A stretch of DNA of 64,000 bases from Psammoneis japonica (lineage: Eukaryota). The notes beneath the pieces were generated by a model that worked only from the letters and a program-made list of their open reading frames with translations, was not told the DNA's origin and searched no databases. Positions 7,350 to 64,000 of the stretch are shown here, in pieces. Each line of letters begins with the position of its first letter. The stretch's first letter is position 1. The position numbers and the translations under genes were made by a program. The stretch covers positions 372,001 through 436,000 of the forward strand of contig QPGO01000002.1 in the NCBI GenBank assembly GCA_008632985.1. Reading direction: 5' to 3'.

Positions 7350-9364
7350 AGCGGTGCTATCTGGCTTGGATCAAACTGGGCACGGACCTTATGGTAGACG
7401 GAAGCAACCAAGAACAACCTAGATGACCTGGTAGTCCTAGACGGAGCGTGTGAAAAGCGAGTGATCAGTCGTGGTGGCACATCAAAAAAAGGAAAAAAGA
7501 AAAAAGTGGAACAAGAGAAGCGAAACACACCGTTGGCCGTTATTGCGACGATTGATGCAACTAACGGTCAACGGTCGCTAACGGTCATGCAAAGATCCTC
7601 CCAATCTCCCAATCAAATCGGCCGGGACGTAAAGACAGACCGACACACAGGATGTCAGTTTGTCCTCTTCCAACCGGTCTGTCCTCTTGCAAGAGCAAAC
7701 ATTGCAAAGCGACTCTAAGAGTGGCTTCCCATTGTTTGACACATGAACCCAATCTGCTGGCATCAGTTGTAGTCAGGAGGTGTCAATGCATGGAGATCTT
7801 GGCAAAAACAGCGGGACAAATGAGAGTGCTGCATCACACCGCACAAAGGCGCAGCAAGCAGGGGCCAAAAGCACGTTGCCGTTTTCTAAGAACAATCCAC
7901 TGTTCGAGAATTTGCAGAGATTTTTCATCATCAACCAAACCCATTGATGAATGTTTTTTACAATGTCCATTCCAAAGTGGGACAAACATCTGCTGCGCAC
8001 AAAATGCAAGTCGTGACAAGAAGGCAAAACACAGCAACGATGAATGATTGAAAGCTCAGCATGGGCCCACATGTTGTTCGATGCACTGGTGTGCTCCTGG
8101 CTGCTGCATTGTTGTGGAGTTGTCATGCTGCCATTGCATGAGACAATGGCCAAATGATTGACTTGCTGCACAACAAATTGGATGCCCAAAACACTCAGCT
8201 GCAAAATTTTTTGGTGCATTGGTGCCATGCAGAACTCTGCTGACGACCGGTCTGCCCTCTTGGAGCAAAAAAGGGCCCTTCTTGCAACAGCAGCAATGGC
8301 ATTCAAAGCTGTGAAAATGGCAAATGCAGGCACAAGATCACATCAACTGACAATGTCAGAAGACACAAGAATCACAGCACAATGAACAACCTGTCAAGCA
8401 ATTTTGGAGACAAAATTGACTCACACAAAGATGCCAAAAGGCAGTGAACAGACCGGCTTTTTGCTTGTTGCAATGGCAGCCGAGTGGTCATTCCTGTGCA
8501 TGACACCAGTGAATCTCTCTCAGGTTCTGAGCTGCACTTTGCTGCAAGCAGCAGGCAGGGTCCCTCCACTGCACAATTGCAAAACAACAAAACTCTCTCA
8601 TTTGCACGACCTTGTTGATGTGGGCAGACATTGTCATTTTGAATGACAACACTGCCGCTCTGTTGACATTGATGGGATCAACAATGCCTTTGCATTCATC
8701 ACTCTCATTGGCAACATCAATGTGTTGCATGTGTTGTGACACATTTTCCTCTTGCTCAAGACTTGCATGAGTTGTGCCGTCTGAAAAACCAGCAAGCCAG
8801 TGCTAACTGCCCCGTGCATGATTGCAATTTTCAGAATGCAACAAACACCTCACAATGCCCCCCACAAATGGCATCCAATCTGCTGGGATGACATTGTCAT
8901 GGCTGGGGTGGTCATTCCCACACCAACGGTGTGTTGGGAAAAATGAAGAGTTGACAATGAAGAAACTGGGGTTGTCCACTTTGGACAAGGGCTGCTGCTT
9001 TGGTGGTCACAGTGTCCAAGTGGTGCAGCTGATGTCATGGACATTGTGAAAATGTCAGTGCACAGCACAAAGTTGTGGCTGGCAATGAGGAATGCTTTGA
9101 TGCACTGACAATCACAGAAAGCTGGCCTGTCTTTTGGGAGCTCTGCTGTGTTTGAACCAATGGAGTTGTGACAGCAAGAGTGTCAGCAGGATGACCGATG
9201 ATTCAATTGTTGCATGCATGCTCTTCATGCATGAGAGGAGCAGAAACTCTTGCTTTGACAGCCATGCCATGGTGAATGCCAGCATTGAATTTGGCACCCA
9301 CATGATGTGAGTGTGCAACACTGGACAGATTGGTGCTCTTGGGAGATCATTGTGGCAGCATCCA

Positions 9365-9779
9365 ATGTGCAGCACTCCAGCCACAGCAGGTGGATGGTGC
9401 TCCTTGTGACATGGGCCAGAAGAGTTCTGTCTGCAGGCTCCACTGCAGAATGACTGAGCAATTGGTGCATTGATGATCACCAACAGAAAAAGAGGCAATT
9501 TTGCCAACACATGTCCTCCTCCACACTTGGAGGGCATCATTTCCAGTTTGCTTTGGCACATTCTTCAGACATCCAAGAATGCACCCAGCCTGTTTTTGCT
9601 TGCACAAATGAAGAAAATGGAAAGCCTTTGGCTTCACAAAACAGGGGGCATGAAACAATTTCACAGAAGATTGCACGCAGAAATGCATGTGCACAAGCAG
9701 CATGTGGGCTGGTGCAATCCAAGAAACTCTCATGTCACAATGCAGTGGTGCAAGGTTCCACCTGGAGCTGGAGCACATC
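9365..9779 (-). mobile_element. Non-autonomous (MITE-like) relative of the Sola-type element, heavily mutated
   Basis: Ends in ...ccacctggagctggagcacatc, a mutated reverse complement of the TIR gacgcgttccaggtctaggtgg. The interior aligns with 62150-62508 and 63550-63928. The left boundary is approximate. Confidence 0.7.
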
Positions 9780-10769
9780 ATCTGCCCAAAACAGTTGAAG
9801 TTTCATGGGGCAAAGTCAAATGCCAGGCTAGGAAGGAAATCATTGGCATGATGGATGTGAGTCTGTCAGTGCAAAAACACAAGCAATTGTTTGTTGCAAG
9901 CATGTTTGCATTCAATTGAGGGGTGGCTTGATGAGATGGAAGTCATCATGAAGGACAAATTGGCTGTTGGCTTTGTGGCACTCTCCTTCCAAAATCATTG
10001 ATTGGGGACATTGAACTTTGCATCTTGTGGGATGTCTTGTGAGAATGTCTGCTCAAATTTTGCCATCAAACAGTGAGTCTAGATGCTCACATGTGGCAAA
10101 ATCAAGGTTGCCTTGAGCCAGATTTCATTCAGTCCAAGTGGTGCCAGGGATTCAATGTGCAACAATGAAGAACAACTTGTGCTTGCTCTTCTTGATGATT
10201 GCAGTCATGAGCTTGTTCAGATTTGGGGCTGATGATGACAAGAGTGATTTGTGGCTGTGCTGTGCAGAGGGTGCTCCTGCACAAGGCTGATGGCCAGTTT
10301 TGAGTCCTGAGCCTCAATTGCACTCAGCATTGAGCCCCCAAGTGCCCCAATGAATTGCAGAGACGGGGCTTGATGATCAAAGCCATCTGGCAAGAAACCC
10401 TCTTTGGTGTGCACCCCACTGAGTTTGTCACTGAGCTCAGCTGACATTGGAAAGTGCACAGCAGAATTGACATGTGCCAAGTGTGAAAACAAGGGTTGCA
10501 ACACATTTGTTTCATCATTGTCTGATGTTTTTCAGGATTGAAGAGGCCAATGGGAGCCAGCGCCTCTTGCAAAAAATGGGCGCTTCTTGATCATCACCAG
10601 ATTGATTTGCGCACATGTGGGATGGGTTTGTTTCAGCAACATGTGGGCAAAATGCTCAAAAACATGCAAGCATGCACCAGCCAGCTGCAATGGATGTGAG
10701 CAAACACGACCTTCTCAAGTGACATTTGATGGTCATGACTGAGAGTTTCAGGCTCAGCTTTTGCCAGTG

Positions 10770-11280
10770 GTGAAAGTTTGAGCAATGGCTGAAACTTGCA
10801 TTCCTGTTTGCTCAAACTTGGCAAGTTTGAGCAATTGGTCAAACTTGCAACATTTCTGACACTTCTGCAAGTTTGAGCAATTGCTCAAATGTGTGTCTGC
10901 AAAAACAACCACCATTGCAAGGAGTTGCAACGTGACACAACAACATGTTTTTGAGAATGAAGTGAAAACAATGTGATGCATTGTTTGAGAAATGAGTGTC
11001 GCCATTGTCTAGAATGGCCTCAAACACTGTGTTTCTGTTGCTCCAATTTAGTGCAGAAACCTGCGCAGCACTGTGCTGCAGCATCAGGGCAAATCCCACC
11101 TGAGTGACACATGTGCCTGCAGTTGTGCCTCATTGTGAGGCAGGGGAGTGCAGTGCTGACAAGTTCAGTTGGCAGGCTGACACTGTGTGGCAGTTTTGCA
11201 TCAGCACCCAACACTTTGGACTCGCAATGCATGTTTGAGCAATTGCTCAAAGATCCTGCATGTTTGAGCAATTGGAAGAC
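10770..11280. repeat. Cluster of palindromic tttgagcaattgctcaaa motifs, probably subterminal repeats of a small element
   Basis: Perfect 18-bp palindromes at 10872-10889 and 11234-11251, with variants near 10777, 10826 and 11263. Confidence 0.7.
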
Positions 11281-12418
11281 CCGATCTATTTGGAGGTGCT
11301 TGACAGCTGGACTGCACATCCACCACAATGCACAATCCACAGTGTGGGCCAATGCAGTCTCCTGGCTGTGTTGGCGAGGGCTGTCCATGAACAACATGGC
11401 CTGTTTTCATGGATTGTGCCTGCCACAAAGGAGCAACTTCTCTGCCAGTGACATGGGAGCAGAAGAACTGTTTGACACTTTGACACAGACATGACCCAAA
11501 AATGCACATGGAAAAAGGTCCAATCCCAACAGTTTGATGTCAAACTCACATGGACCACTGCTTGTTCCACAGTGGCAAAAGACTTTTCGTTGTTGTCTGG
11601 CGAAAGTCAGTGAGTGCACAGAAGTTGAGAAATGCACAGAAATGAGGATGGAAACAAACAGCAGTCAATGTGTGTGCCAGCGCCAGTGCCATGCTGCACT
11701 TGTGCATGAAGGATCATGGCCAAACATCATGGCAAACAGTGCAAAGTTTTGTCCGTTCTGCAGTGGAGTCATTGCATGAGATCTCACCCCCCTCAGAACT
11801 CACAAACATGTCGATGCTAAAACCAGCCACTGCACATTGTCACACATGTGAACTCTGATCACAACCCAGATTTTGCACAATCAACTCTTGCACCTCTGCA
11901 ACTTGTGAGACCTCCTCAACACCCACTCAGGAACACAGAGCTGCCATCTTTGTCACAGCCATGGTTGAGAAGCCAGCTTGTTTGCAGCAAGGATGCAGCC
12001 TGTTCTCAGCAAAATAGAAGCAAGAGCATGAGCTGCTTTGTCATGCATTGTGGTCGTGCAGCAGCACTTGTTGTGTTGTGTCAAATGCAGCTCAGCGAGA
12101 AAGCAGCATTTTGCGCATCTCCCACAACATGCACATGGCATCATCCAAGTGATTGATGTTGTGCGCACACCTGATTTGCGATTCATTTTCGTGAATCGCA
12201 AATGAGAGGGTTGTCAGCGCAAAAAAAAAGTTTGCAATCCACTGAAAAAATGTTTTTTTTTTTTTTTGAGTCTCATTCGCATCTTGGAGGACGCACAGAC
12301 ATGAGTTTTTGATGCATAGAAGGTCGGTGGATGCTGTACTCAGTACGAGTGTGACTACTAAAAATAAAAGTATCGCAACCATGAACTCGACCACGTTCAT
12401 TCTACAAACATTGTTTTT

Positions 12419-29028: not shown

Positions 29029-29166
29029 AGAGTGACTCAATAACTGATAACTTTAGAAACTGCCATTGAATAATGATACCAAGTCGTGTCCATAGTAATT
29101 TGCGCGAGTCTTGGAACTCCTCTACTGCATCTTTTCCTCTAGCCATCTGTATTCGCTTCACTAGAC

Positions 29167-29673: not shown

Positions 29674-30209
29674 TGCTATTACGGTTTTCGAATGTACAAA
29701 TATCTCCAGCACTAACAAGACTCTATAAAAGTCTTGCCGAACCTACAAAGCTCGACGATGTAAGCTTTCGCTTTCGCTTCATCATTGTGGTTGGCATGTT
29801 TTTCTCGTGAGCTAAAAAAGTCGCGATCGGCCGTTTTTAACGGTCGTTGCCGTTACAGCTTGGATGTCGACCGTTGGAAATGCCGATGCGCCCGAAGCGC
29901 GCAATGATGTTTTGGCGCTTCCACTGGTGGATTGGGTTGACGCCCGAAGACACATCTAAAAAGAGCTAACTACGTGTAAAAAAAAAAGGTTTTAGGTTTA
30001 CACGTAACCCTAAAAAAACTAAAATGGGCGTAAGTAGGACAAACTGATACACAATGATTTGTTTGGATAGATAGCAGGGGGTACCGGTAGAGGCTAATCA
30101 CCCACAAGTTGTACATTCGCTCTCTCAGAGACTGTACCGATTGTCTCACAAAATCGCAATCCGGACAATTGCTTCTATTAACTCACTCTTTCTTTGCAGA
30201 AACTACTAC

Positions 30210-31433: not shown

Positions 31434-31563
31434 AGAGTGACTCAATAACTGATAACTTTAGAAACTGCCATTGAATAAAGATACCAAGTCGTGCCCATTG
31501 TAATTTGCGAATCTTGGAACTCCTCTACTGCAACTTTACCTCTATCCTTCTGTATTCGCTTCA

Positions 31564-42779: not shown

Positions 42780-45700
42780 GCATCAAAGAAGCAACACGCA
42801 ACAAATGCCAGACCCTATACATGAATTGTTTCATGCAAATGTTTTTGACCCATCTTGCTGCCTGCTTTGTGAGAAGGGAGCGAGTCTTGCTTTTTGACAG
42901 CCAAAGAGAAGCTGGAGGGCGTCTGTGGGATGCGGCTCTCCTCTGCACAGTTTGAAGCTTTCCCCTTTTTAAGCTGGTCATGGCATCCACATTGCATGTG
43001 ATCTCCTGCCTGAGGGCTGTTGTGCCCCCATGTTGCAGTGCCAAACCATGTGATTGCCACAAGAAAGCAAAGCTTGCACCACAGCACCCATTGGCTGCGG
43101 GCACGACAGCTTCTTTGGAATTGTGTGCACACTGTGCATGTCAGAATTCCCATCACCGGCACACTGACTTTTGCAGAGTTGCTCTTGCAGCACCAGAAAC
43201 AGTCAGCAAAGTTGCTGGCAGAGCAAGTGAATTTGTTGCATTGCTGAGCCAGATGAAAAATGGACAAAACACAATGATCCCTCAACAACAGGGTGAAATT
43301 TGATGTCATCAGTGCTGTGTGGTGAAATGAGGACTTTTCACATTGGTCAGTTTCTGGAGAATCACTTGGCAGATTGATCAATCATGCCAGTTGCTCTCTG
43401 CACTGAGAGGAAAGAAGGCAAATCTGCAGCTCTCATTTGCAGAGATGTGATTTTGTGAGAGCATTGCAGCACCTTTTTGCAGCATGGCAGCACGCACATG
43501 AGCACAGATTTGGAGCACCTGGCAGTGTCAATTGGAGCACAAAGAGCATGTGCGCCTCTCTCCAAAAGCTGTGAAAACTGCAACAGCAGCAGGTGGTCGT
43601 GGTGGATCCTGTCAGGAGTCTGCAGTCCAGGAAGCTGGTGAGACAGATTGATGTGGAAACGGCGCTAAAGATGTTGCTGTGAACAGAGCTGTGGCCATGA
43701 GTGACAAGAAGAGCTCTTGATGCAATGCAAAACAGCACCTGCTGGAGCATGCTGCACATTCTTTTGGGAGATTTGTGACTTCACAAATCCAACCTCCAGA
43801 GGCACTGGAATGAGTTGTTCCAACATGGTTGTTTTGGAAACAACACTGCAGCTGTGGAAGAGAGTGGCACAGTGGTGGGCAGAGTTGCCTGGCCCAATGA
43901 CAATGGCCAGGTGGTGCAAACACCAGCTCAACAAAGACCTTCAAGAGCAAGAGCCAAGCAGGCTCAAGACAGGAGCACAAAAGAGTGGAACCAAGTTCCA
44001 GGGCTGTGCATCATGGAGGAACTGTGCAAGTTTTTCTGAACAACAAGGCTGGCGGCAAAGAGCAGCAGCAAGCTGCTGAGGCACTCATGAAAACAACCAA
44101 AGACGAGATCACCAACTGTGCAGGACAACATTTCAACTCAGGTGTCTGTGTGAAAGCTGTGGTTGGGCAACTTGAACAAGCAGGCTTCAACAAAGAAAAG
44201 CCTGCTTTGCCAGCTCCATCTTTTCCCATTGTCTGCATGCACTGTTTTCTGCCATGTCCAAACACACACAACCTCATTTTGCACTCACACAATTGAGCTT
44301 TGACAACAAATGTGTCCATTGGAGTGATGCACTTGTTTGCTGCAAAATGCCATGTGTTGTGGGTGCTGCACACCCTGCAGCTGGGTGTTTTGAGAAACTT
44401 GCTGCTGGGTTGCCAACATCTCCCAAGGGGCACACAAAATCATGTCATTTGTCAAAACCCATCCCAGTTGGATGTGTCAAGACTCAAGCATTGCTGCTCC
44501 ACTGCCAAACTGAGAATCCAGGTGATGCTCCTCTCACAGCTTTTGTCCAACAGAGAACATGCATTCCTCTGGAGCTTGGCTTGGCTTCACCAAGCAAGGC
44601 ATCAATCAGTGGCCAAACTGTGCACTGCTTTCATGATGCCATTCAACAAAGCAGCTCTCTCTTTCTCTCTCCTGCCAAAAAGCACCAGCTGAAAAACAGA
44701 AGCACTGGAACACCAAGGAGTGGAGGTGCTCTGCTCTGATGCCAACAATGATGCCAGCTGTGACAAACATCCATTTTTAGTCTCCTTGGCTGGCGGTGCA
44801 CATCAATTTTGATGAGCCCACAAGCACCATGAAATCTGTCACAGCAACAACTTGGTGGACAATGCATCCAGCAACATCTTGACAGATGTTGCTGGCTTTG
44901 ATCTTTCTCAATTGTGCCTGCCCCCCAGGGGTGTGGCACTGACTCTCTTTGCATTTTTGCTCGTGTGCCCTTCCTGCTGGCAGAGCATCTTTGAAAATGT
45001 GGGCGTCAACTTTTCATGACCCACAATGGCCTTTTTTGTGATTGCAGAGTTTCCCCCAAAAATCAGAAAAGTGCTGATTTGAGCAATTTTGCCAACTCAT
45101 CCCTTCCTCTGCCATGTTGAGCATGTAAAAGCCAGAGCCATTGTGCACTTGCCCAGTCAGAGGTTGCTCATGTGTTTTCTGAGCCTGCTGAACAGGGGAA
45201 TGTGGCCAGACAGCTGTGACAGAATGCTCTGTTGGAGATGCTCCAAGAAGTTCACAGCTGCAGAGTGCTGCACAGCTTGGTCTGCTGTGCCTGAGCTTTC
45301 AGCCAACAAAAAGCCCAGAAAAGCCTTGCTGTTGCCACACCATCTTTTGCTTGAGCTGGGCTGATGATGTTGAAGAACAATCAAGAGTTTTTTGCTCTAA
45401 GACAGTTGCATCAGGCTGTGAGTGCTGCACAGTGTTCTCCCAGTGAGCACCCTGACAACTCTGTTCTTTGAGTGGTGGGCATCTTGAAATGCACCGTTCT
45501 CCATGCTGGCACTGGTTTGGGGCACCCATGTTCTTTGCTGCAGAAACACAGAGAATGCTGGCTACAAATTGGTGCTGCAAGCAAAGATGGTCTCATGTAG
45601 AAAGCAGTTTGCTGCATGACAACAAATCACAGTTCATTCTCTTGAGCATGCTGCTTTGATGTGCTGGCAGAGATTTGTCTGATTGCCTGCCATCAGAACA

Positions 45701-48700
45701 ACAGCCTTGCTGGGGCTTCACTCATGACTGACCTGTTGAGTTGGCATTTGTGCAACATTGGCTCAAAGCCAATGTTGGGGATGCAAAAGTGCAGGATTGG
45801 GTCCAAAAATGGTTGTGGCAGCAGGAACCCCAGAGGGGAAGTCTGTCAGATTTGCTTGCACAAAACACGCATCATGGCAGTGCCTCTGTCTGGTGTGCCC
45901 AGCCTCAAAGCATCATCTGATGTGGCTCACAAGTTGGTGTGGTCACAGCTTTTGGACAACATGGATGCAGCCATGATCTTGGCAGCCTGCAATTTTTGGA
46001 ATGTGCTTGCAGTGTGCCGTGGCAACAACTTCGTTCTTGCACCACATCTGTGCAAAATCTGACTGTCTTTTGGTGTTCCAAAGAAGTCCAAAGCAAAGTC
46101 TGGGGCAGACATGATCCAACTCTGAGTGGGACCTTGCAGTGCTGTTGGCTGTGACAGAACATTTGTTGATCATGCACCACACAAACGTCAAGCACATTTC
46201 AGTGCACTTTCTTTTGCAAAAAACATTTCAAATGCTGCACGCCAGAAATGATGCACTTCAGGAATGGGCACTTGAAGTCAATCAAAAATTTTTTTTTTGT
46301 TGTTGGCAATCATTGACTTGTCAATTGCCTTCTGGTTGTGATGCAGAGCTTGCGTGCAGAATTCCACATGCCCAGCAGTCTCACATGGTGCCCCCCCATC
46401 CAGGGCCAGAGGAGTGCACATGGGAAAAAACCCACTGAACACCAGATTTGAAAGGGCTGTGCAAGTGATGGAAACTGCACTCACTCTCACATCATGTCAT
46501 GTCAGACCTGCAATTTTCTGCACTTTCTAGAGAGCATCTGGTGCCCTCAATGACCAGAGCAGTGCCTGCACTGCTGGCAAATGAATTGTTGTGATGTGCC
46601 CCAGTCTGCTTCATTCCATCTTGCAGTCTCCTTGTTGCTTGTGGCATGACACGCAACAGCCAAGCAGAGCATCAAAGAAAGTGCAACATGGGTGCCACCA
46701 CCAACAAGTGCAACAACCAACAGCTTGTTTGCAGTGTCATGCGTGTGGTCTGCATCAAACTTGTTGTTTGAAACAAAAAGTGAGCAATGCTTTTTTTTGC
46801 AGATTTTCACAAAGGCATCAATCAGTGTCCATGGTCAAATGTTTTGCTTGCCACAAAAGAGCCCAACTGTGTGCCACACCCTCCATGCATGCTCTTGGAT
46901 CACAGCCAAATTGCTGGCCATCTGGCCCCACATTTTCCAATCTAAAGAGTGCACTTTCAATGGGGCAGGTGCCGATTGTCTTGTTGGGATCTTGATGTGA
47001 GGTTGCACAAGAGACAGACAAACACCTCTCTGAGCAAGCTCTGGCAGCAGCTTGTCTGTGGTGTGCTTGCCTCCTGTGGTGTGGTGTGCCACACATGTCT
47101 CCTGTGTTGCAAAGCAAAGCATCACCTTGTTTTGCTTTGGCAAACACCTCACAGGGCATGACACAACAGGAGCAGTTGTCAAAGTTGTCTTCGTGCATCT
47201 CAGCTGACATTTTGCATCTGCTGTGAAACTCCTCTTCCTTGGCATCACAATCAAAATCAGGTTTTTTGCACACATGAGTTCCAGGACAAAGCCCCGCTGC
47301 TCCCATGGCTTGAGTTGTGTCTTGTGTGGCAATTGTGCCAGCATGCACTCTGGAACAATCAAGTCCAGACACTTGGCAGAAGATGAAGCTGAATGTCTGG
47401 ATGACATCCCTGCACCCTTTTTGCCAGTGACGACAGAGAAGGCAATGAGCAAGGCCTCAGGCCCTGCAAGTGAGTCAATCAAAGGCCACAAAGTCTCATG
47501 CTAAAAAATCTCCTTGAAAACTTGTCAAACAATCAGTTCTGTGTGTGGCAGCATGGCAATGTGGTGACAATTCTTCTCCAGAAGAATGCAGGCAGAACAT
47601 GCTCTTGAACTCATGGTCTTGTTGGAGAGAGGATGGATGGAGCAACTGCAGAGCCATGCACTCAAGCCAACTTGTGAGCTTCTTGTTGCAACATGTTTCC
47701 ATCTGCAATTTGGTTCTCTAACAGTTCGGTCATTGGCCTGCACAGTTGAAGACCGTTTTCACCTTGTTTCAAGTCATGAAGCTCCAAGGATGGCCCACAC
47801 ATGTGGCTGATGCAATGGACACTTCCACAGAGGAAAGGTGCAAAGACAAAAAGAAGACATGCAATGAGCAAGAAAAGAACCCCAACAAGAATTCTTCTTG
47901 TCATGCTGCAAGCAATGCTCGTGACAGCAGAAAAGCTTGCCAAAGTCAGCACTTGAGGAGTTTTGGCTTTCAACAGTTGCTGTGACAGTGCACGGTTTGC
48001 AGCTTGCACTTGCTGGTGCAGACCTTCCCATCAGTTGAGAGTCTCTGCATTCCATGGAAAACAAGAATCCCACAATGTTGTCACACCTGTGGGGACCCCA
48101 GCAAGTCTGTGCATTGCCCACAACTGATTTGGCTCTGTGACAGACATGCGGCAGTTTTTCCATCACAAAAACAGCAAATTGACCATGCAGATTGCTGACA
48201 CTGCAATGCTTTTTGTCACCACCTTTCCAGCTGCTTTTCAATGTGAATGGATGGACAGTGGTCTCATGATGAAGGCCCTGCAATGTGGCATCTTTTCGGA
48301 TGTTGTTCAGTCCAACATCTTGTTTGCCTTCTGTGATGTGTGCCTCAAATTTGGTTGCCCTTTGCACAGACAACAACTGTGCCAAGGGTTGCACTGCTGC
48401 ACTGTCACTTGGTTGTTGGACAAAGAACTCCAGCACAGCTGCTGTGAAGCACATGAGCCAAAAGAGTTTTGCTTCTGAGGATTGGGTGCTGAGCAAAATG
48501 AGAGAAGACAAGGAGGAAGACATGGCCATCATGGATTCCACACAGACACAGTCTCTGAAGCAGGCTGCAAGGACAAACTGCTGCTCCCAACACTTTTGGC
48601 ATTTTAGAAGTGCCATCTCAAAGCAACTGGAAATTTACAACTGGTGTTGATCATGGCAGAACTGTGGGCTCCAGTTGGAAATTTGGTCGACACTGATGTC

Positions 48701-49675
48701 TGTTGGATGATTTTGCAAATGAGCTCCAGCAGTCAAGCAGCAATGCCGTCACAGAGCAAATCAGGCAATCCTTGAAAACACAACCACAACATGACTGGCA
48801 TGTTGGGTTTTAGAAGAGTTTCTTGGGCAGCAATGACTGTCAATGCAAGATTCTAAGACACCAATTTTCAATGCTTTGTGGAGCATGATTGGAGTTGGAG
48901 AATCCGCAAAAACGCAACTCAACTGGCATGTTGGGTGGCCCTGTTTTACTGTGTGGGAGTTGCTCAAGCTGCAGCTGCTGTTTCAAGAAATCAAAGCAAT
49001 GTTTTGCTGAGCATTTCCATCAGAAAATGCCTGGAGCAAATTAAGAGTCACAGAAACAAAACCTGGAATCTAGAGTTGTGGCAAGAGTGCACTGTGTGCA
49101 CTGACAAATGGGGCTGCACACATCTCAGACAACAACATTTCAGACCCTCTCGCTTGTGGTTCTCTGATGGGTGGGCATTGTGGACATCTGAAAGGGGAGA
49201 TGGCTTGGCACTCTTTTTTTGTTCCTGGCACCTCTCACTGAACACATGTTTGCTTGACTCCACCAACCTGCAACACATCATTTGTGGTTGTTTTTCACAA
49301 TCAAAGCTTCCCTGTCAACAAAAAAATCACTGAGAAGACATGCCAGTTGCTCTGCTTTTTTGCCAGTTTTTTCTTCCACATTTGGATGCCATGATTGGAG
49401 GCATTTGGGGGGTGTCGCTGCTTGGCAGCAGCGATGCAAGGGCACAATTGCTGCGGCAATTTCTTCCACTGAACCTCGCCAACAGGAGCAGAACAAATGA
49501 CTCATTGAAAACAATCACCAGCAGAACAGCCAGAAAAATGTTGGCACACAACAAACTGAAAAATGGAAATTGTCGTGGTGACCAACACAGGATGTCACTC
49601 GAAAAAGTTGCTCCGTCAGATGGACGTGCAGAGGGGGGATCCCCCCCTTCGCTCGTCAACTTGTGAACACTGCAC
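42780..49675. mobile_element. Long degenerate TpA/CpG-depleted element (unclassified), host of nested insertions
   Basis: About 7 kb nearly free of TA and poor in CG. Continues after the insert at 55339. Confidence 0.6.
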
Positions 49676-50718
49676 TGTCAGCCCATCTGTCTGCATGTTG
49701 CATGATGGACAGACTGGATGCAGATGATGGCTGGACCATTTGGACAGACGAGCAGATCTCTCTGAGATCTGCTTCTCACTTTCTCATCTGCTGGTGCTCG
49801 TGTCATCACAGTCCTGGCACTTTGGGGAGTCTTTCACACCTCTGTCCTCCATTGCCTTCCGCATTCTGTCAGGTTGTGGCCTTGCGCTGTGCCACAGACC
49901 TCTGCGCCAAGCTTTCATTTCGATTCATTTGTTTTGTGAGCCGATCGAGCCAGCCTCATCGTCTGATCCGACAACTTTTTGTCTCGCTTTCCCGGCATTT
50001 TTCACGACCGTCCAGATTTCTACGCGTGTATGACCAAAAATGGCTCCACCGACGCGTTCCAGGTCTAGGTGGGACCTCGCACTGCTGAACTGTGACATCG
50101 ATAGTTTTTTGAATCTCGTCGTATGTCGCGCACGTAGAATTCTACGTGATTTTTTGAAATTTTGTGTCATTTTACGGTACACTTATCGAGCGATCCGTCC
50201 AAAAACTTTTGACATTTTTTGTTACAGCGCGATTCTATAATGTCTTAAGAATCGCGTAGGGCAGGTGCATTTGCAAAAACGTCGTGTGGTAAGAGGCATG
50301 CCGGCAATTGTACCACAAACTTGGCCGTTTATTTAATGTTGAAGATAAACATGTCCATTTTAATTAAATAAGACTGACTAAATAGAAAGGTCACCATTTG
50401 CCAATTTTGGGCCAAAAATTGAGTTTTTTGCTTTTGGCATTAGTGAAAACTAGAGCAAAAATGCTTTCAAACGATGTGTCGGTCATTTTGTGGGTCCGAT
50501 TTCTTGAAAAATGGCACCAATCTTGGGGTTTCCATGGGATCGCATGCCGGACGCGCGCACTCTTCAAAATGCGCGTAAATTGCACACCACGCACTTTGTC
50601 AGCCACGTAAGAAGCTGCTGTTGTTGCCGCTGGTACACTTTTGGCAGCCATTTTTATTTTTTTCAGAAAATAGAACAGCACACCATTTTCCCGCAGCAGC
50701 AACTGTCTTTCGTCCACA

Positions 50719-53019
50719 ATGGCAATGGACGACGACGATGCCGGCAACAACCGGTCTGACTCAGTTGGCAGCCTGTATGCAAAGCTCAGAGTCAAGCCTC
50801 ACCCTTCACGTGAGGATGCTCTTGAGATGTGCAAGGAATTTCTTCAAAATGCATTTGACAGCCCGAAGTGTGTGGATGTTCGGGGGCGGCCAACGAGGTG
50901 CGAATGTTTGCATGCTTTTCGGACGCGGACAGAGTGGCTTCCCTGCATTGCAAAGTTCATGTTGGATGAGGTGGCATGCAAGAGCAGAGACGACAGGGAG
51001 AGCCACATCCTGCAACAATGTCGGTCATGCCAGTCCACGAAATTTCTTCCCGTTCCAGCTGCGGGCAAGCCACCGGGCTCCGACGTGTTGACATGCAAAA
51101 ATGCTTTCAAGCACATTGTGAATGTACGTCAAAAAGCTGACAGAAGGGTGAAAGAGGCGATTCAATCAAACATGGCAACGTCGCATGGCAACAAGGGCAA
51201 ACCATCAAATGCAAGAATGAAGGCAGACGTGGAAACGTCGTTGCACGTTTTTTTCAAAGACATGATGGAACTTGCTTCTCCTCGAGCCACAAGGTTTGTT
51301 CGACTAGAAGTCGGGGTGGGGACCAGGGATGATGATGAGGAGCTGCTGGAGCTCCCAACCCATTGGACGGCTCGCCGACTGTGCGGCAAATGGGTTGGCG
51401 AACGAGGATGGAAAGCCAAGCTCAAGAATGACAAAGGGGCGATTGAATTGACACAAGCAGCAGAAGACGTGGAGCTGCAAAAGACAGTTGTTTTTGAAAC
51501 TTTCCGTTCTTTCTGGAAGAGAAGCTGCCCAAAGCCAGTTCTTCCTAAAGCTGGGGAGGACATTTGTTCTGACTGCTTTGTGCTGTCGCATGCTTTTCGT
51601 TGCTTCTCGTCGCCTCGTCCTTTGAACAGCAGTGACACTCCAGTGAATGGACATCCAAGGAGAGAGGAGGCAGTGGCAAAAGCTCAAATCCACATCCAAC
51701 AGGCTGTTGCTCAGAGAGAACTGTTCAATTCTCTCACTGCCGAATGCCTTGAACAGGAACTCATTGACGTGCTTGTTGGCGACTGTTCCGAAAACATGGA
51801 CCTTCCACACCTTGGCAATGAGCAATCAGGTGACACTTGCTGCTTTTCTCCATTGAATGTAAATTGTTTTGGACTTGTCAACATGAAAGACAACTTGCTC
51901 CAAGCATGCGTGTGCCACGAGGGCCAAGGTAAAAAAGGAGGCAACAACGTCGCATCACTCATTGTGAAGCATCTAAAGGACAAAGGGTGTTTGGAGGTTG
52001 ATGATGATGGAACAGCAAAGCAAATTCGAGCAAAGCTTGCTGTTGTCATGGACAACTGCTCGGGTCAGAACAAGAACAGGATGGTTCTTCGGCTGGCCCT
52101 CTACTTGGTTGAGCGGGGATTCTGTCAAACCGTGCAGTTTGTGTTTCTTGCAGTCGGGCACACAAAGAACCCTTGCGACCGGATGTGTGACATCTTGTAA
52201 AAGCCACACAGAGACTCCAATGTCTATGCCTTCAAGCAAATGATGGAATTGTTGAATGAAAACGAGAATGCTGCCGCCACCGCTGTGGACGAGGAAGACT
52301 TCCAAGACTGGGATAAGAAACTCGATTCATTGCATCGACGCTTCGCCCCCAGCACCGTCCACAAGAGCCACATCTTTTCTGCAACAAAAGCCTCGCCAAC
52401 TGACATGAAAATTCAGGTGTCTTGCCGGGAGGAGGATCAAGGTGAGACTGCCACAAGAGAATTCAAAAAGCCTGGGACCAACAGCAACAGAATGGAGCTC
52501 TTGCAGGCGGCACCCCAGGTCATTCCATTTCCTGGAATTCCCGACATTAAACAAATAGAGCTTGGGACAAAATGGAGGAAGCATGTTCCAGTGGAGCATC
52601 AGGATGAGATTTGCCCCATGCCACCACAAGCAATGATCGACAGACACAACAAGTCAAAAGCAGACAAGGCCAAAAGGAGCAAAAAGACTGTTTCCAATTC
52701 GAGATCAAGACAATCTCCCACTGCCGCTGCTGCTGCTGCATCCACTCAACCCCCAGCTGTTCCTGCCACTCAACCACATTTTACAGCCCAGCAACCTGCA
52801 GCACCAGCTGCTGCTGCCGCCCCGCCGCCGCCGCATTTCGTCAACCCGAATTTCGTCAACCCGCATGGTCTACAACAACAAATGCTTCCGATTGCGGCAT
52901 TGCATCCAACTGCAGCTGCTGAAGTGCAACAGCACATGCAAACCCTTCACTCCACTCTTAACTGTTCTACTATTGAGGAAATTTTGGCGCGTCCACATGG
53001 TCCCTGCTGGCACGGTTGA
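50719..53019 (+). pseudogene. Sola-type transposase, one in-frame stop (52198-52200), Tyr-depleted
   Basis: EDICSDC, LPHLGNEQSGDT..FSPL, HEGQGKKGGNNVASL, DNCSGQNKN and GHTKNPCDR. The ORF at 52240-53019 is in the same frame. Confidence 0.85.
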
Positions 53020-53047
53020 TTGGTTGGAGCGATCACGTCGGCGGCAC

Positions 53048-53550
53048 TGTCCATCTGAACAGAGTGTATGACAACAAAAATTTTAGACGATACCAAAAAG
53101 AAACACAACCATCATACTCGATACATTCATATTACCTTATATCCATGATGTTAATCATGTGACATTGACCCAGTGATGGTCGCTTTGTTAATACGGAGCA
53201 TGGCCGAGTCGCGTGGAAACCACACAAAATCATCCAAACAGAGTGTGGCAACAAGAATTTTAGACGACATCAAAAAACAAACACAACCATCATACTCGTC
53301 ACATTCATATTGAGTTATGTCCAAGCTCTGTATCATGTGATATTGTTCCAGTGAGGGTCGATTCATGAATGTGGCCGAGTCGCAGAGAAACCACAAACAT
53401 GCTGTCCATCTAAACAGAGTGTTGCAACAAGAATTTTAGATGACACCAAAAAACAAACACCACCAGCATACTCGACAGATTCGTATTACCTTATGTCAAT
53501 GCTTTTAACCGTGTGATATTGTCCCAGTGACGGTCGCTTTTTATGAACAC
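53048..53550. repeat. Three tandem units of about 170-180 bp in the right arm of the transposon
   Basis: aacagagtgt..caacaa.aattttaga.ga..caaaaa..aacac..c..catactcg occurs three times. Confidence 0.85.
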
Positions 53551-56079
53551 AGCGGCGTCTCCATGGTGCTGCTGCGGTTTGCGGTGCGCGTGATGGTTTT
53601 TTGCTTTTTTCTCAAAAGTAACCATCACGTCTGTCTGTTTTCCATGGTTTCCTTTTTATTTAGTCAGTCTTAAATTCTCGTACTACGGAGCTCGCACGTA
53701 GAATTCTACGGGCCCAATGTCACACGGAGTCCCACCCAGGGCTGGAACGCGTCCACCAACTAAAACCATGGCGTCTTCCGACCCCACAAAGCCCGCTCTT
53801 CCGTCCATCACAGAGATCCACTGTGAATTCGAGGCACACACAACGATGCCACATCTGCATGACTGCCTGAATGCAATTCATGCAGACTCCACAACTGATC
53901 TTGACCCGTTCTTTGACGATCCAGAGCATGCGCAACCCAAGAAAGATTTCGTGGACATGCTTCGTGATTGCTTCATCAACGAAGCGTTTCCACCCCACAC
54001 AGCTGATCCTGCGGATGTACAGTCAATCAAGACAATTGTGGATCAAGCCCCGTTCTGACTCATTGACTCTCAAAGACCTCGTCCAGTCCGTTTGACGACT
54101 CCGATCTTGTCAAAGATGATCAAGACGAATCTCCAGAACAATGAGCAATCTCTGTTCATTCTCATCTCCACCCAACGTGTGTGTGTTGATCCGGACATGA
54201 CATGGAACTGTTGCAGTTGGAACAAATTCTCTCTTGCACCCTGACAGCAGAAACAGCAGCCTCCGTCTCCTTCTCAGAAAGCTGCAGGACCTGCTGCATT
54301 GACTGTGAATGACTCAGTCAATGTGCTCAATGCACACGCGTCGAGTCACGCTCCGCCTTCTACAGCTTCTGCCAAGCCATCTGGAAGTGCTGCATCTTCT
54401 GTGACATCAAAACACCTCTTCAATCCGAACACACTGCCCAAAGATGTTCGTGCACGCTGCGACCGCAAAGAAGACGGAAAAGCCACTCTTCGGAGCTCTC
54501 TCGTCCCTTGTGACCATGGATTCCGTCACTGTGTTGATGCATCCGATCGCATCATCCTTGACGATGGCACCCTTTTCATCATGAGCTCGACTCCTGACCA
54601 GAAAATGTTGTTCAGGGAACCTCCTGCATGTCATGACGACTCTCCCCCTGGGGTGCGAGCATGGCACCAAAATTTCCAATGTCATGCCTTTGATTCAGGA
54701 TGCCACATGCATCCATTGTGGTGTTTTGCTGAGGACCACGGTGGTGAGAAGGGTTTCGAGATCAGAAACGGCAAGGATGATGACTTGCCTCAACGCATGT
54801 GCATCCACTGCAAGGAAGCTCAGAGCTCTCTCCACAAAATCCCATCCAAGTCGGACATGTTCCCCAAGAACAGCAAACATCATCGGATTGTTGCATCATG
54901 CTGCGGCAATGGATGCAAGGCTCTCAAGCAGATTGTCTGCGAGAATCATCCTGCTTTCGACCACGATGCTGCTGGGCTGGTTGACTCCCATCCTGTCCAA
55001 GGCAATCGATCATTGACGGACTGCCACATGATCTTCAATGATTTCCTGCAGCTGCGCGCCTGCATTTTTGATGCGGACTCTACATTGAATGATCCACGAG
55101 AGATGACCATCTTTGTCAAGAACACCAAGTGCTCCAAGTTCTCATCTCATGCCACCAGAGATGAACGGAAGTCTCCAGCTGTGCAGAAGAAGTGCGCGGA
55201 TGCACAGATTGTCGAGACTCTCTCTGATTTCCTCCGCCAACCGGGTGGCCCATCCCTTGCCACTCGTGCGATGCAATCCAATCCCCGCCATAAATGGAGT
55301 CGAGCAGCTGAGGATGCGCGACCTTTGGAATTCTGTCATGCACTGCAAAATTGAAATCAGCACAATCCATGACCGCCCTTGGAATTTTTTCTTTGCAGTG
55401 TCGTCTTTTCATTGTCAAGGCATCAGATCAACAACAACAATTTACAGCACTGGCCAAGTTTGAGTGCACCTCATGTCATGTGTTGAATTTTTGGAGCTGT
55501 GTTTGACCCAATTCATGCATGCTTGAAAAATCGATGGAAGATAAAAGTTGTCAAGCATCAATCACCAACACATCACAACATTGTTGCGAACTTGCGCACA
55601 AGATTGATTTTCTGTTGTGCCCATTGAGACAACCAAACATGATGATGACTTTGGTTCATGACATGCACGAACTAAAATTTTAGTTCAATTTTTGAAAAAT
55701 TGGAAAAAAATTCACAGGAATGTTGTGAGATGTGTTGTTGGTTTAGCACTGAAGCATGGAAATGCACAACAGGAAGCAACAGCAGTTGCTTTCCTTCCCA
55801 TTTGCTTTTTTTCATTTGAGTCACTCACAACTTCGTTGACTCTCCTGTCTCGACATCATCTCTGAAGCATGAAGCTCTCATCTCTTTGCATGGGACAAAC
55901 CGCGCGGCAGTTGTGTGATGTTTCATTTGCCGCCTCGACAAGAGGTGGCAGTCCCATGAGGATTGGGAAGGCCAGAGGCAATTTTGTAACAAGGTTGCGG
56001 GTGACCATGGCACAAGAAAGGGAAGGATGAAGTCTTTTTTGGTGTTCACTGTGCACAGCTGCATGCTGTGGACTGACAA

Positions 56080-58967: not shown

Positions 58968-59347
58968 AACTCATAACGCATTGATGGTTTGCACAGCTGG
59001 TCTCGTTTGCGGAGTTTGAAGTTGGAGAGTGGAGCGGTGAGCGCAATGCTAACGGAGCTCGAAATAGCTCGTATGGTCGATTTTGAGGTACTACCGTATG
59101 AATACGGATCGAAAGCTCTTGATCTCAGCTTTTCAGCGATGTATGTATCAATAGCTGGCAATGCTTCCATGACATTTTTTTAGCCTTAAACTAAATTAAC
59201 GGCTTTAACAGTTTACTATGAGTTTTTTGACCGTTGAGATAATGCGCGAAATAACATGCCAAGACAGTCACGTGACTGTCAAGCATGTACAAAATTACAC
59301 AAACTATTTTAAGCGCTCAAACAGGGTTCGAATTTGAAAAACTCTTG

Positions 59348-61688
59348 ATGGTGGCAACAAGAGCAAAGCAAAGCAGAGTCACAAAAAAATGGCGCGGCCG
59401 AAACCAACCAAAGACGTCAAGGGCGATGAGGCCGCAGAAAAGTTCTGCGATTGGCTTTCCAACCCTGCAGAGTCTCCCATTTTCCACGAGTGCTGCACCC
59501 AAGCAACTGCAAAGAACCTGCGAAATGTCAGTGTCTGCAGAAGCCAAGAGCAGTGTTGGAGAACAACGACAGCTCCTTCGTGAAAATGCTGAGCAACTGC
59601 CTCGTGCACTTTGAAAGACTGGGGTGCACAGAAACACATGCCACTTTTGCATCCTAGATTGAACATTCTGCTTTTGTTCAGAAGCATGCGTGCAAGGGTG
59701 GTTGTCGCTGCTTTGTTTTGCCGCTGTTGAAAGCTGACGCTGACGACGACGAGGAGGAGGAGGGGACACCACCAGATGATCATCTGGTCTGCTGCAGTGC
59801 CCTCCTTGCATTGCTGGGCAAAGGGAGAAAGTTCTGGAGAACTGCCAAGTTGAGTGCAAAGAGCAACGTCTTTCCGAAACACGATCTCAAAGGGAAGACT
59901 GGGCAGAACGCGAACAAGACGCTTGCACCCGAAATGCACACAGTGCTTCGCGCATGTTTTGATGACACAAAGGAACTTTCTGAACCACGCACAACGAGAC
60001 TGGTCAGAGAAGAGACAGGTGTTGGCTTGAGAGATGAAGACACGCACGCACATGACTCACCTCCCACCATGAAAAAGCATGGATCATGCAAACGACACGG
60101 ACAAGAAAATGGCTGGACCCTCAAATCGAACCACAAAGGAAAGTTTCTCAAGGCGGAACCAATTGAAGGAGAAGAGCAGCAACCAATGTGCTCCTGGGCA
60201 CAATTTTGCAAGTTCTGGAAAAAGAGCTGTCCTGAAATTGTCGTGAGAAGGCCCACTCGTGACATCTGCAACGAATGCTGCAAGTTCGCAAATGGCTTCA
60301 GGATGAAAGTGATGAAAGAAAAGACGGGGGGTGAGAGCAATGACGATGACAACAAGGAGGAAAGCAATGATGATGAAGAAGATGGAGCAGATGCAGAGGT
60401 GAGAATGAAAGAGATCGAAGAACAGGAAAATGAAATGTTGCACGCTGCAAAGCACGTCGAGTGGGCTCGAAAGCAATGGACACTTGTGCAACAGTGTGTT
60501 TCGGAAGCAACAGAACACGTGAAAGCCAACAAGGCACACGGCAAGCGAACTCATGCAAGGATTGGTTGCTGTTGTCAAAATGGCGGGCTTCCACATTTTG
60601 GGGCGGATCAGCCAGGGGAGATGCGCTGCTTCTCTCCTTTGACGATCAACATGTTTGGGGTTGCCGATCCTTCGGGGAAAAAAGTTGTGACAGTGACGGA
60701 AGATGAGTTCAAGGATTTTTTGCATGCGTGCATCTGCCATGAGGGCACTGGACAAAAGGGAGGTGACAATGTTGCTTCCCTTGTGATGAAGCACTCACAT
60801 GATGGTGGATTGTTGGATGTCAGGAAGGGTCCAGGCGGAAAGCTTGCATTGATTTTTGACAACTGCATCAGGCAAAACAAAAACAACACGGCATTGAGAC
60901 TTGCTTCACACCTGGTGGAACAAGGACATTTTAAAGAAGTGAGCATTGTTTTTTTGACAAAAGGGCACACCAAGAATGCCTGTGACAGGCTCTTCAAAAG
61001 CCTCAAGCAAACTCACCATGACAAGAACATCGGCATGTTCCGCAAACTCTTGACAGATTTGGACACCTCCGAATGTGTTCAGGTCGTTGAAGTGAAGGAG
61101 GAGGATTTTGTGGGGTGTGGAGCGCACTTTGACCAACATTGCAAGAAGCACAGCACAGCTGCAAAGTGCCACTGCTTTGAAGTGACAGATTCTTCGGAAC
61201 CTGCGGCAGCAACAATGAAAGCAGCAGATGGCGAGCCTGAAGTTAGCAAGGATCTCAAGAAGTGGAAGACAGAATCAATCGAGCAACGAAAACAGAAGTT
61301 GCAAATGTCACAACCACATGCCTTGACACCTCCAGGTGTCAAGGACACAAAGAAGGTCAAGCTTTGTGCCAAGTGTTGGCCGCTTCTTGATGAGGCAGAC
61401 CAAGACGAGATGTGCCCTCATCCTGGAGACGACATCCTCAATTGCATTGCAAAAAGCAAGAGAGAGAAGCAGAAGAACAAGCAGGTGGAGAGCACTGAGC
61501 AGATGGTGCGAAATGAGAAAAAGAAAACTGCCAAAGCCAGCGCAATTCTTTTGGAGAGGGGCACAAATAAAAATCAACAGCAGTCCTTGTGCACACACAA
61601 ACTTTGTGCAATGTTTTGTGTTTGCACTTGCATCACATCACATCACTCAAAAATCTTGCAAGTGCCATTTTCTCAAAACAAATTTTGA
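59348..61688 (+). pseudogene. Second, divergent Sola-type transposase (decayed; no Tyr in the 656-aa frame)
   Basis: RDICNEC, LPHFGADQPGE..FSPL, HEGTGQKGGDNVASL, DNCIRQNKN and GHTKNACDRLF. The N-terminus is frameshifted and TIRs were not identified. Confidence 0.85.
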
Positions 61689-62149
61689 GAGCTTGAGAGC
61701 ACGCGTCAGCACCTTTTCATGTGGCCAGTCTCATGTGAACATGTCTCAACGCATCATTGTGATGATGTTCAATGTCATCAAACACCACAACCACCTGCAT
61801 CCCACAGTGGCACCATTGCCTGCAGTGCTGCACCAATGGCTGCTCTGATGCAGCCACTCTAGCCACTCTAGAGAACTCAGGGGTGTGTCAGTCCTGGCAA
61901 AAGTGGTGCCAGAGGGCAGCATGCGAGCATGTTGTCAAAGCCAAAAAAAACAGCAACATTTGGCAAACTCATTTTTGAGTGGTCAGGAAAATGGAGGACA
62001 AGGAGCGAGGGAAGTTTGCGAAGCCAAGAACTCCTCCAGTGCAAGCACGAGAAGTTTGCAGTGCATCAGGGACCCCGCACAAGAAAGTTTGGGCTCCCCA
62101 AGGTGTGAAAAAGCAAGAAGTTTGCAAAGAACGTGTTTGTGCCCCCCTG

Positions 62150-62508
62150 GGGCGCCAGTGTGACCTCAGGCAGGACTCTGTGCAGCATGTGCGGGCCCGC
62201 AGAATTTTGTGTGCCAGCTCTGCAACAAAGTTGTTGAGCAACAAACATGTGAGATGATTGACAACAGAAAAAGCAAGGCACAACTTTGCAGGCACATCTC
62301 CTCCTGTGCCTGTGTGTGTTCTTTTGCACACCCAACCCACTTTTTTTTGTGCAGATGAAGAAAATGGAGAGCCTTTGGCTTCACAAGACAGGGTGCATGA
62401 AACAATTGGGTGCACAAAAAATGTGTGTGTGCAGCATGTGGCACGATCCAAAAAATCTCATGCCACACTCCAGCACCAGCGCTGGGCCTCACCTGGAGCT
62501 GGGGTGGG
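62150..62508 (-). mobile_element. MITE-like relative of the Sola-type element
   Basis: gggcccgcagaattttgtgtgccagctc and cacctggagctgg match the two element ends in reverse. The interior aligns with 9480-9770. Boundaries are approximate. Confidence 0.7.
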
Positions 62509-63549
62509 AGAAAGGCCCCGGCATGTGAGAATGGTGCCATGTGGAGCCAAATGTTGTGCCACAGAATCAGCAGCAATGACATGCATGTGCTCTTAAAATT
62601 GTGTCAAAGCAAGAGTGACTTGTGCCACTCACTTGTTGTCTGCACAGCTTGACATGCCAAAAAAACAATGACATGGATTGACTCATCTTGTTGACTTTGC
62701 ATTGCATTTTGCACAATCTGGGTCATCCACCACAATCTTGGTGCTCAAATTGAAGGTGTGAAACTTTTGCTGGTGCTGTGTGTGCTTTGTTTTCACCTCA
62801 GTTGTGTGTGTCAAACAATTGTGCCCCTTTGTGCATGACACATGTCACAGGCTGCTGTGAGCAAGTCAAATTTGCAGACAGACATGCAGAGACTGTGGAG
62901 CAACATGCAAGCCAAGAAGCAGCAGCCAACATGGCTCTGTTTGACAAAAACAGATGACCCCCAATGCAGAGGGGTGTGAAAAGCACAAGTGCAAGCATCT
63001 GGGTTGTGAGCTGCTCTCATGTGGTGGCGTGAGCTGAAAAGGTGGTGAGGAAAGAGGAAAAACTTTGGCCCCTGTTGACTCATGTGGCAGCTGTTGACAG
63101 TTTTTTGGAGCTTGGCAGCCATTGCTGGTGCAAGCCTGTGTGTGGAAGTGAGACAGTGTGGTGCTGCAGCAAGAGCCAGCTGGCACATTTAAACAGCCAG
63201 CTCAAAGATGATTGTTCCATGTCATGCCGGCACAGATGCAGAGCTGCACAACATTGTTGAAGAACAGAACAGAGCCCAAATTCAAGCTTGTCTTGCATCT
63301 TCTTGTTCAAGATTCAACGACTGGCAAAAAAATTCTTTTTCAATGAACTGATGTTCAAACGTTGTTTTGATTTTTTGTCAGTGAGGCACGTGCTTGTGTC
63401 ATGCAGGGTCCCCATCTTTTTGGCAAAAAAAAGTGTGTGGAATTTGATGAGGAGCAATTCTGGCAAAAATGCATGCCATCAATTGTCGTTGTCGTTTGTG
63501 TGGTGTGGCACTTTTGTTGGTGTGGTTGTGTCCTCCCTTGTCTGACACA

Positions 63550-63928
63550 GATGCACTCCAGCTCCAGCAGGTGGGACCTTGCACCACTGAACTGTGACAT
63601 CAAGAGGTTTTTGAATTGCGCTGCATGTTGTTTTTGAATTGCGCTGCATGTTGCACATGCAGATGGCTGCATGTGACATTCTACAAAATTGTTTCATGCT
63701 CCCTGTTTTGCAAAACCAAAGGCTTTCTGTCAAGAATGAAAGTGCACTGGGGGCACACTCTTTGATGTCTGCTTGAGTGTGAAGGAGGAGATGCATTTGC
63801 AAAATTGCTTCTTTTTCTGTTGGCGATCATTCACATTTTCATTGCTTGACAAATTCAGCGTGGAGCTTGCACACAGAATTCTGCGGGCCCAATGTCACAC
63901 GGAGCCCTGCTTGGGGCTGGAACCCATC
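63550..63928 (+). mobile_element. MITE-like relative of the Sola-type element with 4-bp TSD (CACA)
   Basis: Starts gatgcactccag and ends ctggaacccatc. caca at 63546-63549 and 63929-63932. Confidence 0.8.
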
Positions 63929-64000
63929 CACACCTCACAATGTGCTGGCCAGGTGTGTGCAGAATTGCCGGCTGCCATTTGTGCTGGCTGTTGCCAATGT

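Follow-up and report, generated by a model that had tools for sequence, protein, structure and literature searches.

Hypermutation of mobile DNA is known in several forms. In the repeat-induced point mutation (RIP) of Neurospora and other ascomycetes, C is changed to T mainly at CpA, with the result that TpA goes up while CpA and TpG go down. ADAR-type A-to-I hyperediting, which is inherited via retroelement RNA, changes A to G with a preference for a 5′ U or T, and methylated transposons decay at CpG through the deamination of 5-methylcytosine. For TA-specific hypermutation of invading DNA there is a single report, a preprint on a chlorarachniophyte. According to that preprint, the integrated giant-virus and virophage DNA of Bigelowiella natans is subject to a regional TpA to TpG/CpA hypermutation, 230 of the 231 changes in its mutation-accumulation lines being A to G or T to C, with a de novo rate in these lines of about 1000-fold over the background, and DDE and reverse-transcriptase domains are over-represented in TA-poor coding sequences (Mettrop et al., bioRxiv 10.64898/2026.01.13.699255). 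In Phaeodactylum tricornutum, the CpG methylation of transposons is reported to be lost upon loss of DNMT5a (Hoguin et al., 2023, PMC9998398). No description of TA-specific hypermutation in a diatom, nor of its relation to CpG decay, was found in searches of the literature. Here we describe the loss of TA and CG from mobile DNA in 64,000 nucleotides of Psammoneis japonica (assembly GCA_008632985.1, contig QPGO01000002.1, positions 372,001 to 436,000), referred to as the window and numbered from its first base, with emphasis on a DNA transposon at 50051-53753 and its transposase frame.

The window consists of compact eukaryotic DNA with a G+C content of 47-50%, in which blocks nearly without TA are embedded, their borders being sharp within 200 bp. 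Expressed as the dinucleotide count observed over that expected from base composition (O/E), TA lies at 0.00-0.11 in these blocks of mobile DNA, compared to 0.57 in the unmutated host DNA of the window (39,153 bases; CG 1.00, TG 1.19, CA 1.20), and the neighbouring genes are spared. It is probable, in our view, that silenced mobile DNA is subject here to two mutational processes that differ in both chemistry and speed. What the data establish is the direction of each change, its specificity for a site, the order in which the two saturate and the occurrence of each loss without the other. The first process would consist of TpA-specific A:T to G:C transitions, which turn TA into TG or CA on either strand within sharply bounded tracts. 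It appears to be fast, as 80-100% of TA is gone from elements that otherwise have a near-intact frame, inverted repeats, target duplication and CGN Arg codons, and it may be carried out by a DNA adenine deaminase or by a thymine-modifying route. The second would be a decay of CpG to TpG/CpA, several-fold slower per site and near-complete only in unrecognisable relics, presumably by deamination of 5-methylcytosine in methylated transposons, and CG content may track age. The chemistry is not the same, A being changed to G beside a 5′ T in the one case and C to T beside a 3′ G in the other. The saturation of TA erasure in otherwise intact elements, with CG lagging behind, argues for an active, targeted editing system and not for general decay.

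The elements of the window that encode a transposase are as follows:

50051..53753, + strand: cut-and-paste DNA transposon with a DUF7869 transposase, recognised by its terminal inverted repeats, flanking repeat and Pfam match
50719..53019, + strand: its transposase frame, 493 aa up to an in-frame TAA (52198-52200), followed by 272 codons in the same frame
59311..61600, + strand: second DUF7869 element, with a frame (59658-61688) that is open for 676 codons and has no Tyr

A transposase-family profile run on the six-frame translation of the window found no copies beyond these two. An earlier note on this DNA, made from its letters alone, had described the first as a structurally intact Sola element. 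In agreement with this, it possesses terminal inverted repeats of 25 nt (50051-50075 and 53729-53753, 88% complementary) and is flanked by the 4-bp direct repeat CACC (50047-50050 and 53754-53757), and loose ends of contigs of the same organism coincide with its borders at 50051 and 53753. Its frame, however, is interrupted by the one TAA. Reading through this stop gives 766 residues with just 3 Tyr, and the second copy has a Lys in its place. Sola elements are known to possess 4-bp target duplications. The label is a tentative one, the only Pfam match of the transposase being PF25273 (DUF7869, E-value 2.9e-13), and the element is called Sola-like in what follows.

Only two Tyr codons, TAT at 50776 and TAC at 52102, are found in the 493-aa frame (50719-52200), as the note had counted, and the motifs GDCSEN, GDTCCFSPL and QACVCHEG, as well as the string quoted for position 50881, are present. 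CG is indeed retained in this region, with 85 against 135.7 expected between 50760 and 52900, where there are 15 TA against 130.0 expected (85 against 134 and 14 against 129 when counted from 50777 to 52900). The coding interior has O/E values of 0.11 for TA, 0.63 for CG, 1.55 for TG and 1.41 for CA, those of the second element being 0.03, 0.58, 1.72 and 1.46, respectively. The CG deficit of these two, and of the element Z described below, is in part arithmetical because TA conversion shifts base composition; a simulated TA-only conversion of host sequence drops the O/E of CG to 0.85.

The frame of the Sola-like element (open reading frame 1, ORF1) and that of the second element (ORF2, 59658-61688) were aligned with 136 relatives of 640-860 residues as outgroup, with columns considered conserved at ≥70% of relatives for residue counts and at ≥40% for codon counts and Fisher tests. 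Cys or His now occupies all 7 conserved Tyr columns of ORF1 and 6 of the 7 of ORF2, whereas the relatives average 0.7% of these residues there; conserved Arg is retained in 9 of 9 columns in ORF1 and in 6 of 9 in ORF2 (the other three being His or Trp). At the codon level, ORF1 has lost the TA of 10 of 12 informative Tyr codons, which are now TGY or CAY, and none of 6 CGN Arg codons (Fisher p = 0.0015), while ORF2 has lost 12 of 12 and 5 of 9 (p = 0.021), with two of its lost CGN codons now encoding His (CAT), two Trp (TGG) and one Gln (CAG). The claim that TA loss runs ahead of CG loss thus holds in both transposase copies. The reading of the motifs as having lost Tyr is likewise borne out, the consensus of the relatives being DYCQN, ETYY.SPL and A..Y.EG where ORF1 has DCSEN, DTCCFSPL and ACVCHEG. 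As conserved Tyr has turned into Cys or His while the relatives keep it, the TA deficit is the result of mutation and not of composition, and the replacement of residues so strongly conserved (7 of 7 in ORF1) indicates that the frame is not under selection.

Changes from Tyr to Cys and to His stand at 16:6 (p = 0.052), and the TA change acts on both strands, perhaps unequally. Runs of the two outcomes along the frames (8 Cys and then 2 His in ORF1, five runs over 12 sites in ORF2) were considered as a possible strand signal; these were unconvincing and were dropped. The same signature was identified in a database relative, P0043, which has a Tyr content of 1.2% and Cys or His at 11 of 16 conserved Tyr positions, compared to changes at only 2 of 19 conserved Arg. 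Among the sources named for the transposase relatives, three are diatoms, namely Nitzschia inconspicua, the label Psemu1 and Amphora coffeaeformis.

Four lines of evidence agree that the loss of TA is ahead of that of CG, these being the codon counts, P0043, the distribution of the two dinucleotides along the window and the nesting of its elements. The window was divided into 256 bins of 250 bp, with TA-poor defined as an O/E below 0.2 and CG-poor as one below 0.3. The 88 TA-poor bins comprise 52 that are CG-poor, 21 that are CG-intermediate and 15 that are CG-normal, 36 therefore being TA-poor but not CG-poor. None of the 136 TA-normal bins is CG-poor and two are CG-intermediate, while one of the 32 TA-intermediate bins is CG-poor.

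The nest around the Sola-like element has two further layers:

49679..55338, no strand assigned: element Z, host of the Sola-like insertion, its own DNA being 49679-50050 and 53754-55338
49132..49678, + strand: repeat A, interrupted by Z, with its continuation B at 55339-55471 and a second copy, A′B′, at 56120-56802

On either side of element Z lies an 8-bp repeat (TGCACTGT at 49671-49678, TGCACTGC at 55339-55346). The O/E values of Z are 0.04 for TA, 0.69 for CG, 1.68 for TG and 1.47 for CA (computed on 49679-50007 and 53763-55338). Contig depth in two bins of its right part is 1556-3466, which marks this part as a genomic repeat. The two copies of the repeat share 84.7% identity over 580 columns (Blast); B′ (56680-56802) keeps TA where B has TG or CA, and the single CG is retained in both. 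For repeat A/B, taken as the block at 55339-56583, the O/E is 0.08 for TA and 0.40 for CG. The Sola-like element therefore sits in Z, Z sits in repeat A/B and A/B adjoins one of the old islands listed below. Moving outwards, the O/E of CG runs from 1.16 in the ends and 0.63 in the ORF of the Sola-like element to 0.69 in Z, about 0.40 in A/B and 0.10 in the old island, and TA is at its floor already from Z outwards.

Two further observations concern Z. An ORF of 369 codons (54245-55354) without a Pfam match lies in a region with about 25-58 genomic copies, as judged by contig depth. In addition, a contig of single-copy depth (62.9) joins 50007 to 53763, bypassing the transposon with an imprecise joint, and may represent an empty allele or a paralogous Z without the insertion.

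Both dinucleotides are depleted in the four old islands, listed here together with the edge strip of one of them:

4349..5459: small isolated island between genes, 0 TA, CG O/E 0.15
7960..12016: old island, O/E TA 0.03, CG 0.14, TG 2.04, CA 1.95, with a mutated copy at about 9380-9800 resembling a miniature inverted-repeat transposable element (MITE)
12016..12316: edge strip of the preceding island, 0 TA (P = 6e-6 at the host rate), 10 CG against 13.9 expected
42971..49400: old island, O/E TA 0.04, CG 0.10, TG 1.92, CA 1.88, without a recognisable coding remnant
61601..64000: old island adjoining the second element, O/E TA 0.03, CG 0.21, with mutated MITE-like copies at about 62140-62430 and 63540-63945

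Over the four islands, the O/E ranges are 0.00-0.04 for TA, 0.10-0.21 for CG, 1.88-2.04 for TG and 1.86-1.95 for CA. The probability of finding no TA in the 1111 bases of 4349-5459 at the host TA frequency is 6e-20, which excludes chance, and at 12016-12316 the TA-free zone overshoots the CG-poor zone by 300 bp. The absence of both dinucleotides from the islands at 8-12 kb and 43-49 kb had already been remarked in the earlier note. Its proposal that both losses converge on TG/CA also stands, as a simulation in which all TA, together with 90% of the CG, of the host DNA were replaced randomly by TG or CA yields TG/CA values of about 1.9, as observed. Comparison of the window with itself (blastn and tblastx) revealed no unmutated parent of the old islands, and none of the 111 frames of at least 75 aa taken from the blocks of Z and of the old islands has a credible Pfam match. 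The sole match above the cut-off, Methuselah_N (28.3 bits), lies in a Cys-rich frame and was taken as compositional.

The old islands (e.g., 7960-12016 and 42971-49400) also have a GpC O/E of 1.38-1.43 and a TpC/GpA O/E of 0.78-0.94, unlike the 1.08 and 1.06-1.09 that the simple conversion of TA and CG in host sequence predicts. These departures may be due either to TA-richer ancestors, since the change of TATA to TGCA makes GC, or to a further context effect. A patch with 8 CG at 62000-62200, inside a CG-poor and TA-free island, is linked to the second transposase element by a weak tblastx chain and may be a younger fragment.

Loss of the one dinucleotide without the other was also apparent in relatives from elsewhere. 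In 80 metagenome loci coding for transposase relatives, obtained by a search seeded with intact motifs, the O/E of TA is 0.60 ± 0.09 (minimum 0.28) and that of CG ranges from 0.12 to 1.17 (mean 0.66), 11 of the loci combining a CG O/E below 0.4 with a TA O/E of at least 0.4. A TA O/E below 0.2 occurs in none of their 940 windows of 500 bp, a negative result that the seeding with intact motifs makes weak. Measured against this family background, TA lies 5.4 standard deviations below the mean in ORF1 and 6.3 below it in ORF2, with CG at the mean (z −0.2 and −0.4). The losses are therefore separable both ways, as the earlier note had suggested in proposing two processes: ORF1 and, in the account of the preprint, the B. 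natans lines are TA-only, and the 11 metagenome relatives are CG-only.

Contigs of the same organism were compared with the window; 40 of the 603 differing places are listed, and the spectra are accordingly partial. Among the differences listed for the two transposase elements are nine events with TA in other copies and TG or CA in the window, three with TA kept by the window and three with CG in other copies and TG or CA in the window. The TA-keeping contig events include the Tyr codons TAC at 51383 and TAT at 60552, and another genomic copy has CGG where the window has TGG at 60477, in an Arg column that is 100% conserved. There are also, among the differences listed for these elements, five double differences of CA to TG or the reverse, which imply independent hits on one ancestral site.

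In the old island (43001-49670), the six single-site TA/CG differences listed, including that at 49651, all have TA or CG in the window and TG or CA in the contig (6:0); the contigs could represent the same strain at a later time, or the asymmetry could be chance.

What is new here is that mutation is limited to the coding interior of the element, with its ends untouched:

50051..50500, no strand assigned: unmutated left end, 25 TA and 25 CG, of which 50051-50359 is the left half of an abundant short element (a MITE)
53020..53753, no strand assigned: unmutated right end, 35 TA and 36 CG, of which 53670-53753 is the right half of the MITE

The O/E of these ends is 0.62 for TA and 1.16 for CG, and the right end contains three tandem repeats of about 177 bp (53053-53539). 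The earlier note had placed the TA-poor region at 50760-52900. This is correct for the interior, but the ends at 50051-50500 and 53020-53753 are normal and the tract itself extends from about 50680 to 52958, so that its two borders lie no more than about 60 bp from those of the transposase frame. The short element has a summed contig depth of 89,102 (bin 49671-50337) and of about 44,000 at its other end, compared to about 60 for single-copy DNA, and is represented by a contig joint of 50359 to 53670 (depth 779). It is present in about 1,500 copies and is unmutated.

Uniform exposure of the element is not credible, given that 83% of the interior Tyr TA are gone while about 60 TA of the ends are all spared. 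Either the tract is set by a transcript or by chromatin, or the interior arrived already mutated; the independent TG and CA outcomes among copies disfavour simple inheritance of a mutated interior. A tentative suggestion, to which we assign a low probability, is that TA erasure targets the transcribed or coding interior and not the element as a repeat. This would imply that diatoms possess a defence by DNA editing that acts on adenine (or thymine) and is guided by transcripts or by transcription, the decay of methylated CpG being a slower second layer. The limit to the coding interior and the immunity of the short element bear on target choice in such systems.

The long ORFs of the window encode SET-domain proteins, kinases, two tandem nucleotide-sugar dehydrogenases, an importin and a WS/DGAT enzyme. 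The dehydrogenase genes (27634-29673 and 30033-32088) are 95.6% identical over 2064 columns and have normal TA and CG, indicating that a young gene duplicate is spared by the TA process.

Several points weigh against reading CG loss as a second process that follows the first. The evidence within the 64 kb comes from two copies of one family and one nest. The contigs probably derive from the assembly's own sample and do not provide independent support. Among the differences between window and contigs listed for the old island, 2 of 17 TA and 3 of 41 CG sites are affected, a similar per-site frequency on tiny counts; if these differences are real and representative, TA and CG sites are still mutable there and a faster TA rate in that island is unsupported. 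Intact-looking relatives span the whole range of CG values given above, and ORF1 (0.63) and ORF2 (0.58) lie near the family mean of 0.66. CG content is an unclean clock, since it varies between families, and the CG poverty of the old islands could be partly inherited. As to timing, the earlier note had held that A to G change at TA is fast and early and that CpG decay accumulates later. The order of saturation is as it proposed, but a later start is not needed, as two constant rates fit the data, with a per-site TA:CG ratio of at least about 3.6 for ORF1 and about 3.5 for the ORF2 codons (higher by CG O/E). Thus, 'later' CG decay may mean merely slower.

The possibility that there is no time order, the CG differences being inherited family content or the result of methylation of some blocks only, with age irrelevant, appears unlikely to us. 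It gains from the range of CG in family members elsewhere with normal TA, from the old islands matching no family in the Pfam scan of 111 frames, and from repeat A, in both copies of which the 5′ half is devoid of CG and the 3′ half rich in it, a pattern which must be older than the duplication. Within one family, however, CG loss is seen directly, ORF2 having lost 5 of 9 CGN Arg codons and the CGG at 60477 existing elsewhere. The O/E of CG also falls stepwise with nesting depth, and the MITE-like ends in the old islands have lost about 11 of 14 CG and 5 of 5 TA relative to the unmutated ends, a rough count made by eye on copies that align over only about 60 bp per end.

Two processes of separate chemistry also have to be weighed against a single, regionally targeted deaminase complex acting on both adenine and cytosine, with a preference for TpA and a weaker action on CpG, which we judge to be a rather remote explanation. 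Such a complex would fit with 52 of the 53 CG-poor bins being TA-poor as well, with the finding that a constant rate ratio of about 4-6 fits both ORF1 and ORF2, and with ADAT2-type enzymes, which are said to act on DNA A and C, as cited in the B. natans preprint. A reader of a 5′ T would nevertheless be expected to deplete TpC, and TC/GA falls only to 0.78-0.94 in the old islands compared to 1.11/1.15 in the host. The TpA process of B. natans is moreover reported in that preprint to spare G:C pairs (1 of 211 changes in the region derived from a nucleocytoplasmic large DNA virus, NCLDV), and CG is lost without TA in 11 of the 80 relatives. That the pattern reflects miscalls at modified bases, or an avoidance of TA at the codon level, without any mutation, is very improbable: seven of the eight events listed between window and contigs in the old island (one double included) fall on TA or CG and could be miscalls, but contigs assembled separately match the TA-free sequence with 8 differing letters in 5459 bases, and selection on codons is contradicted by the replacement of conserved Tyr (7 of 7 in ORF1) and by the effect on non-coding DNA and MITE-like copies.

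With two processes of different speed as the preferred explanation, the losses would provide a two-stage scale for insertion order, from TA kept, to TA lost with CG kept, to both lost, its limit being that CG varies by family.

In comparison with the known systems, the changes at this locus resemble RIP as a transition hypermutation of mobile or repeated DNA with sharp tract edges, by which coding capacity is killed. The direction, however, is the opposite, with TA at 0.00-0.04 and TG/CA at 1.9-2.0, and targeting by repetition alone does not fit with a short element of about 1,500 copies that is unmutated. ADAR-type hyperediting shares the A to G change with a preference for a 5′ U or T, but it requires a passage through RNA, and no such step exists for the cut-and-paste transposons, MITE-like copies and non-coding flanks affected here. 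The loss of CG is like a decay of 5-methylcytosine in its change of CG to TG/CA, in its restriction to mobile DNA and in its growth with apparent age; it differs in that within the window it never occurs outside TA-erased DNA, as none of the 136 TA-normal bins is CG-poor.

The closest case is that of B. natans, with which, as described in the preprint, this locus shares a regional change of TA to TG or CA, on either strand, in foreign or mobile DNA. The lineage is another one and the targets here are transposons and relics. TA is reduced to an O/E of 0.00-0.04, compared to a Rho of 0.45 reported for the NCLDV region of B. natans. As for the sparing of G:C pairs, ORF1 fits with B. natans, having lost the TA of 10 of 12 Tyr codons and none of 6 CGN codons, whereas the older blocks have lost CG too, a loss that may belong to the second process. 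The locus differs from B. natans, finally, in that the older tracts are also depleted of CG and in that, within one element, only the coding interior has been hit.

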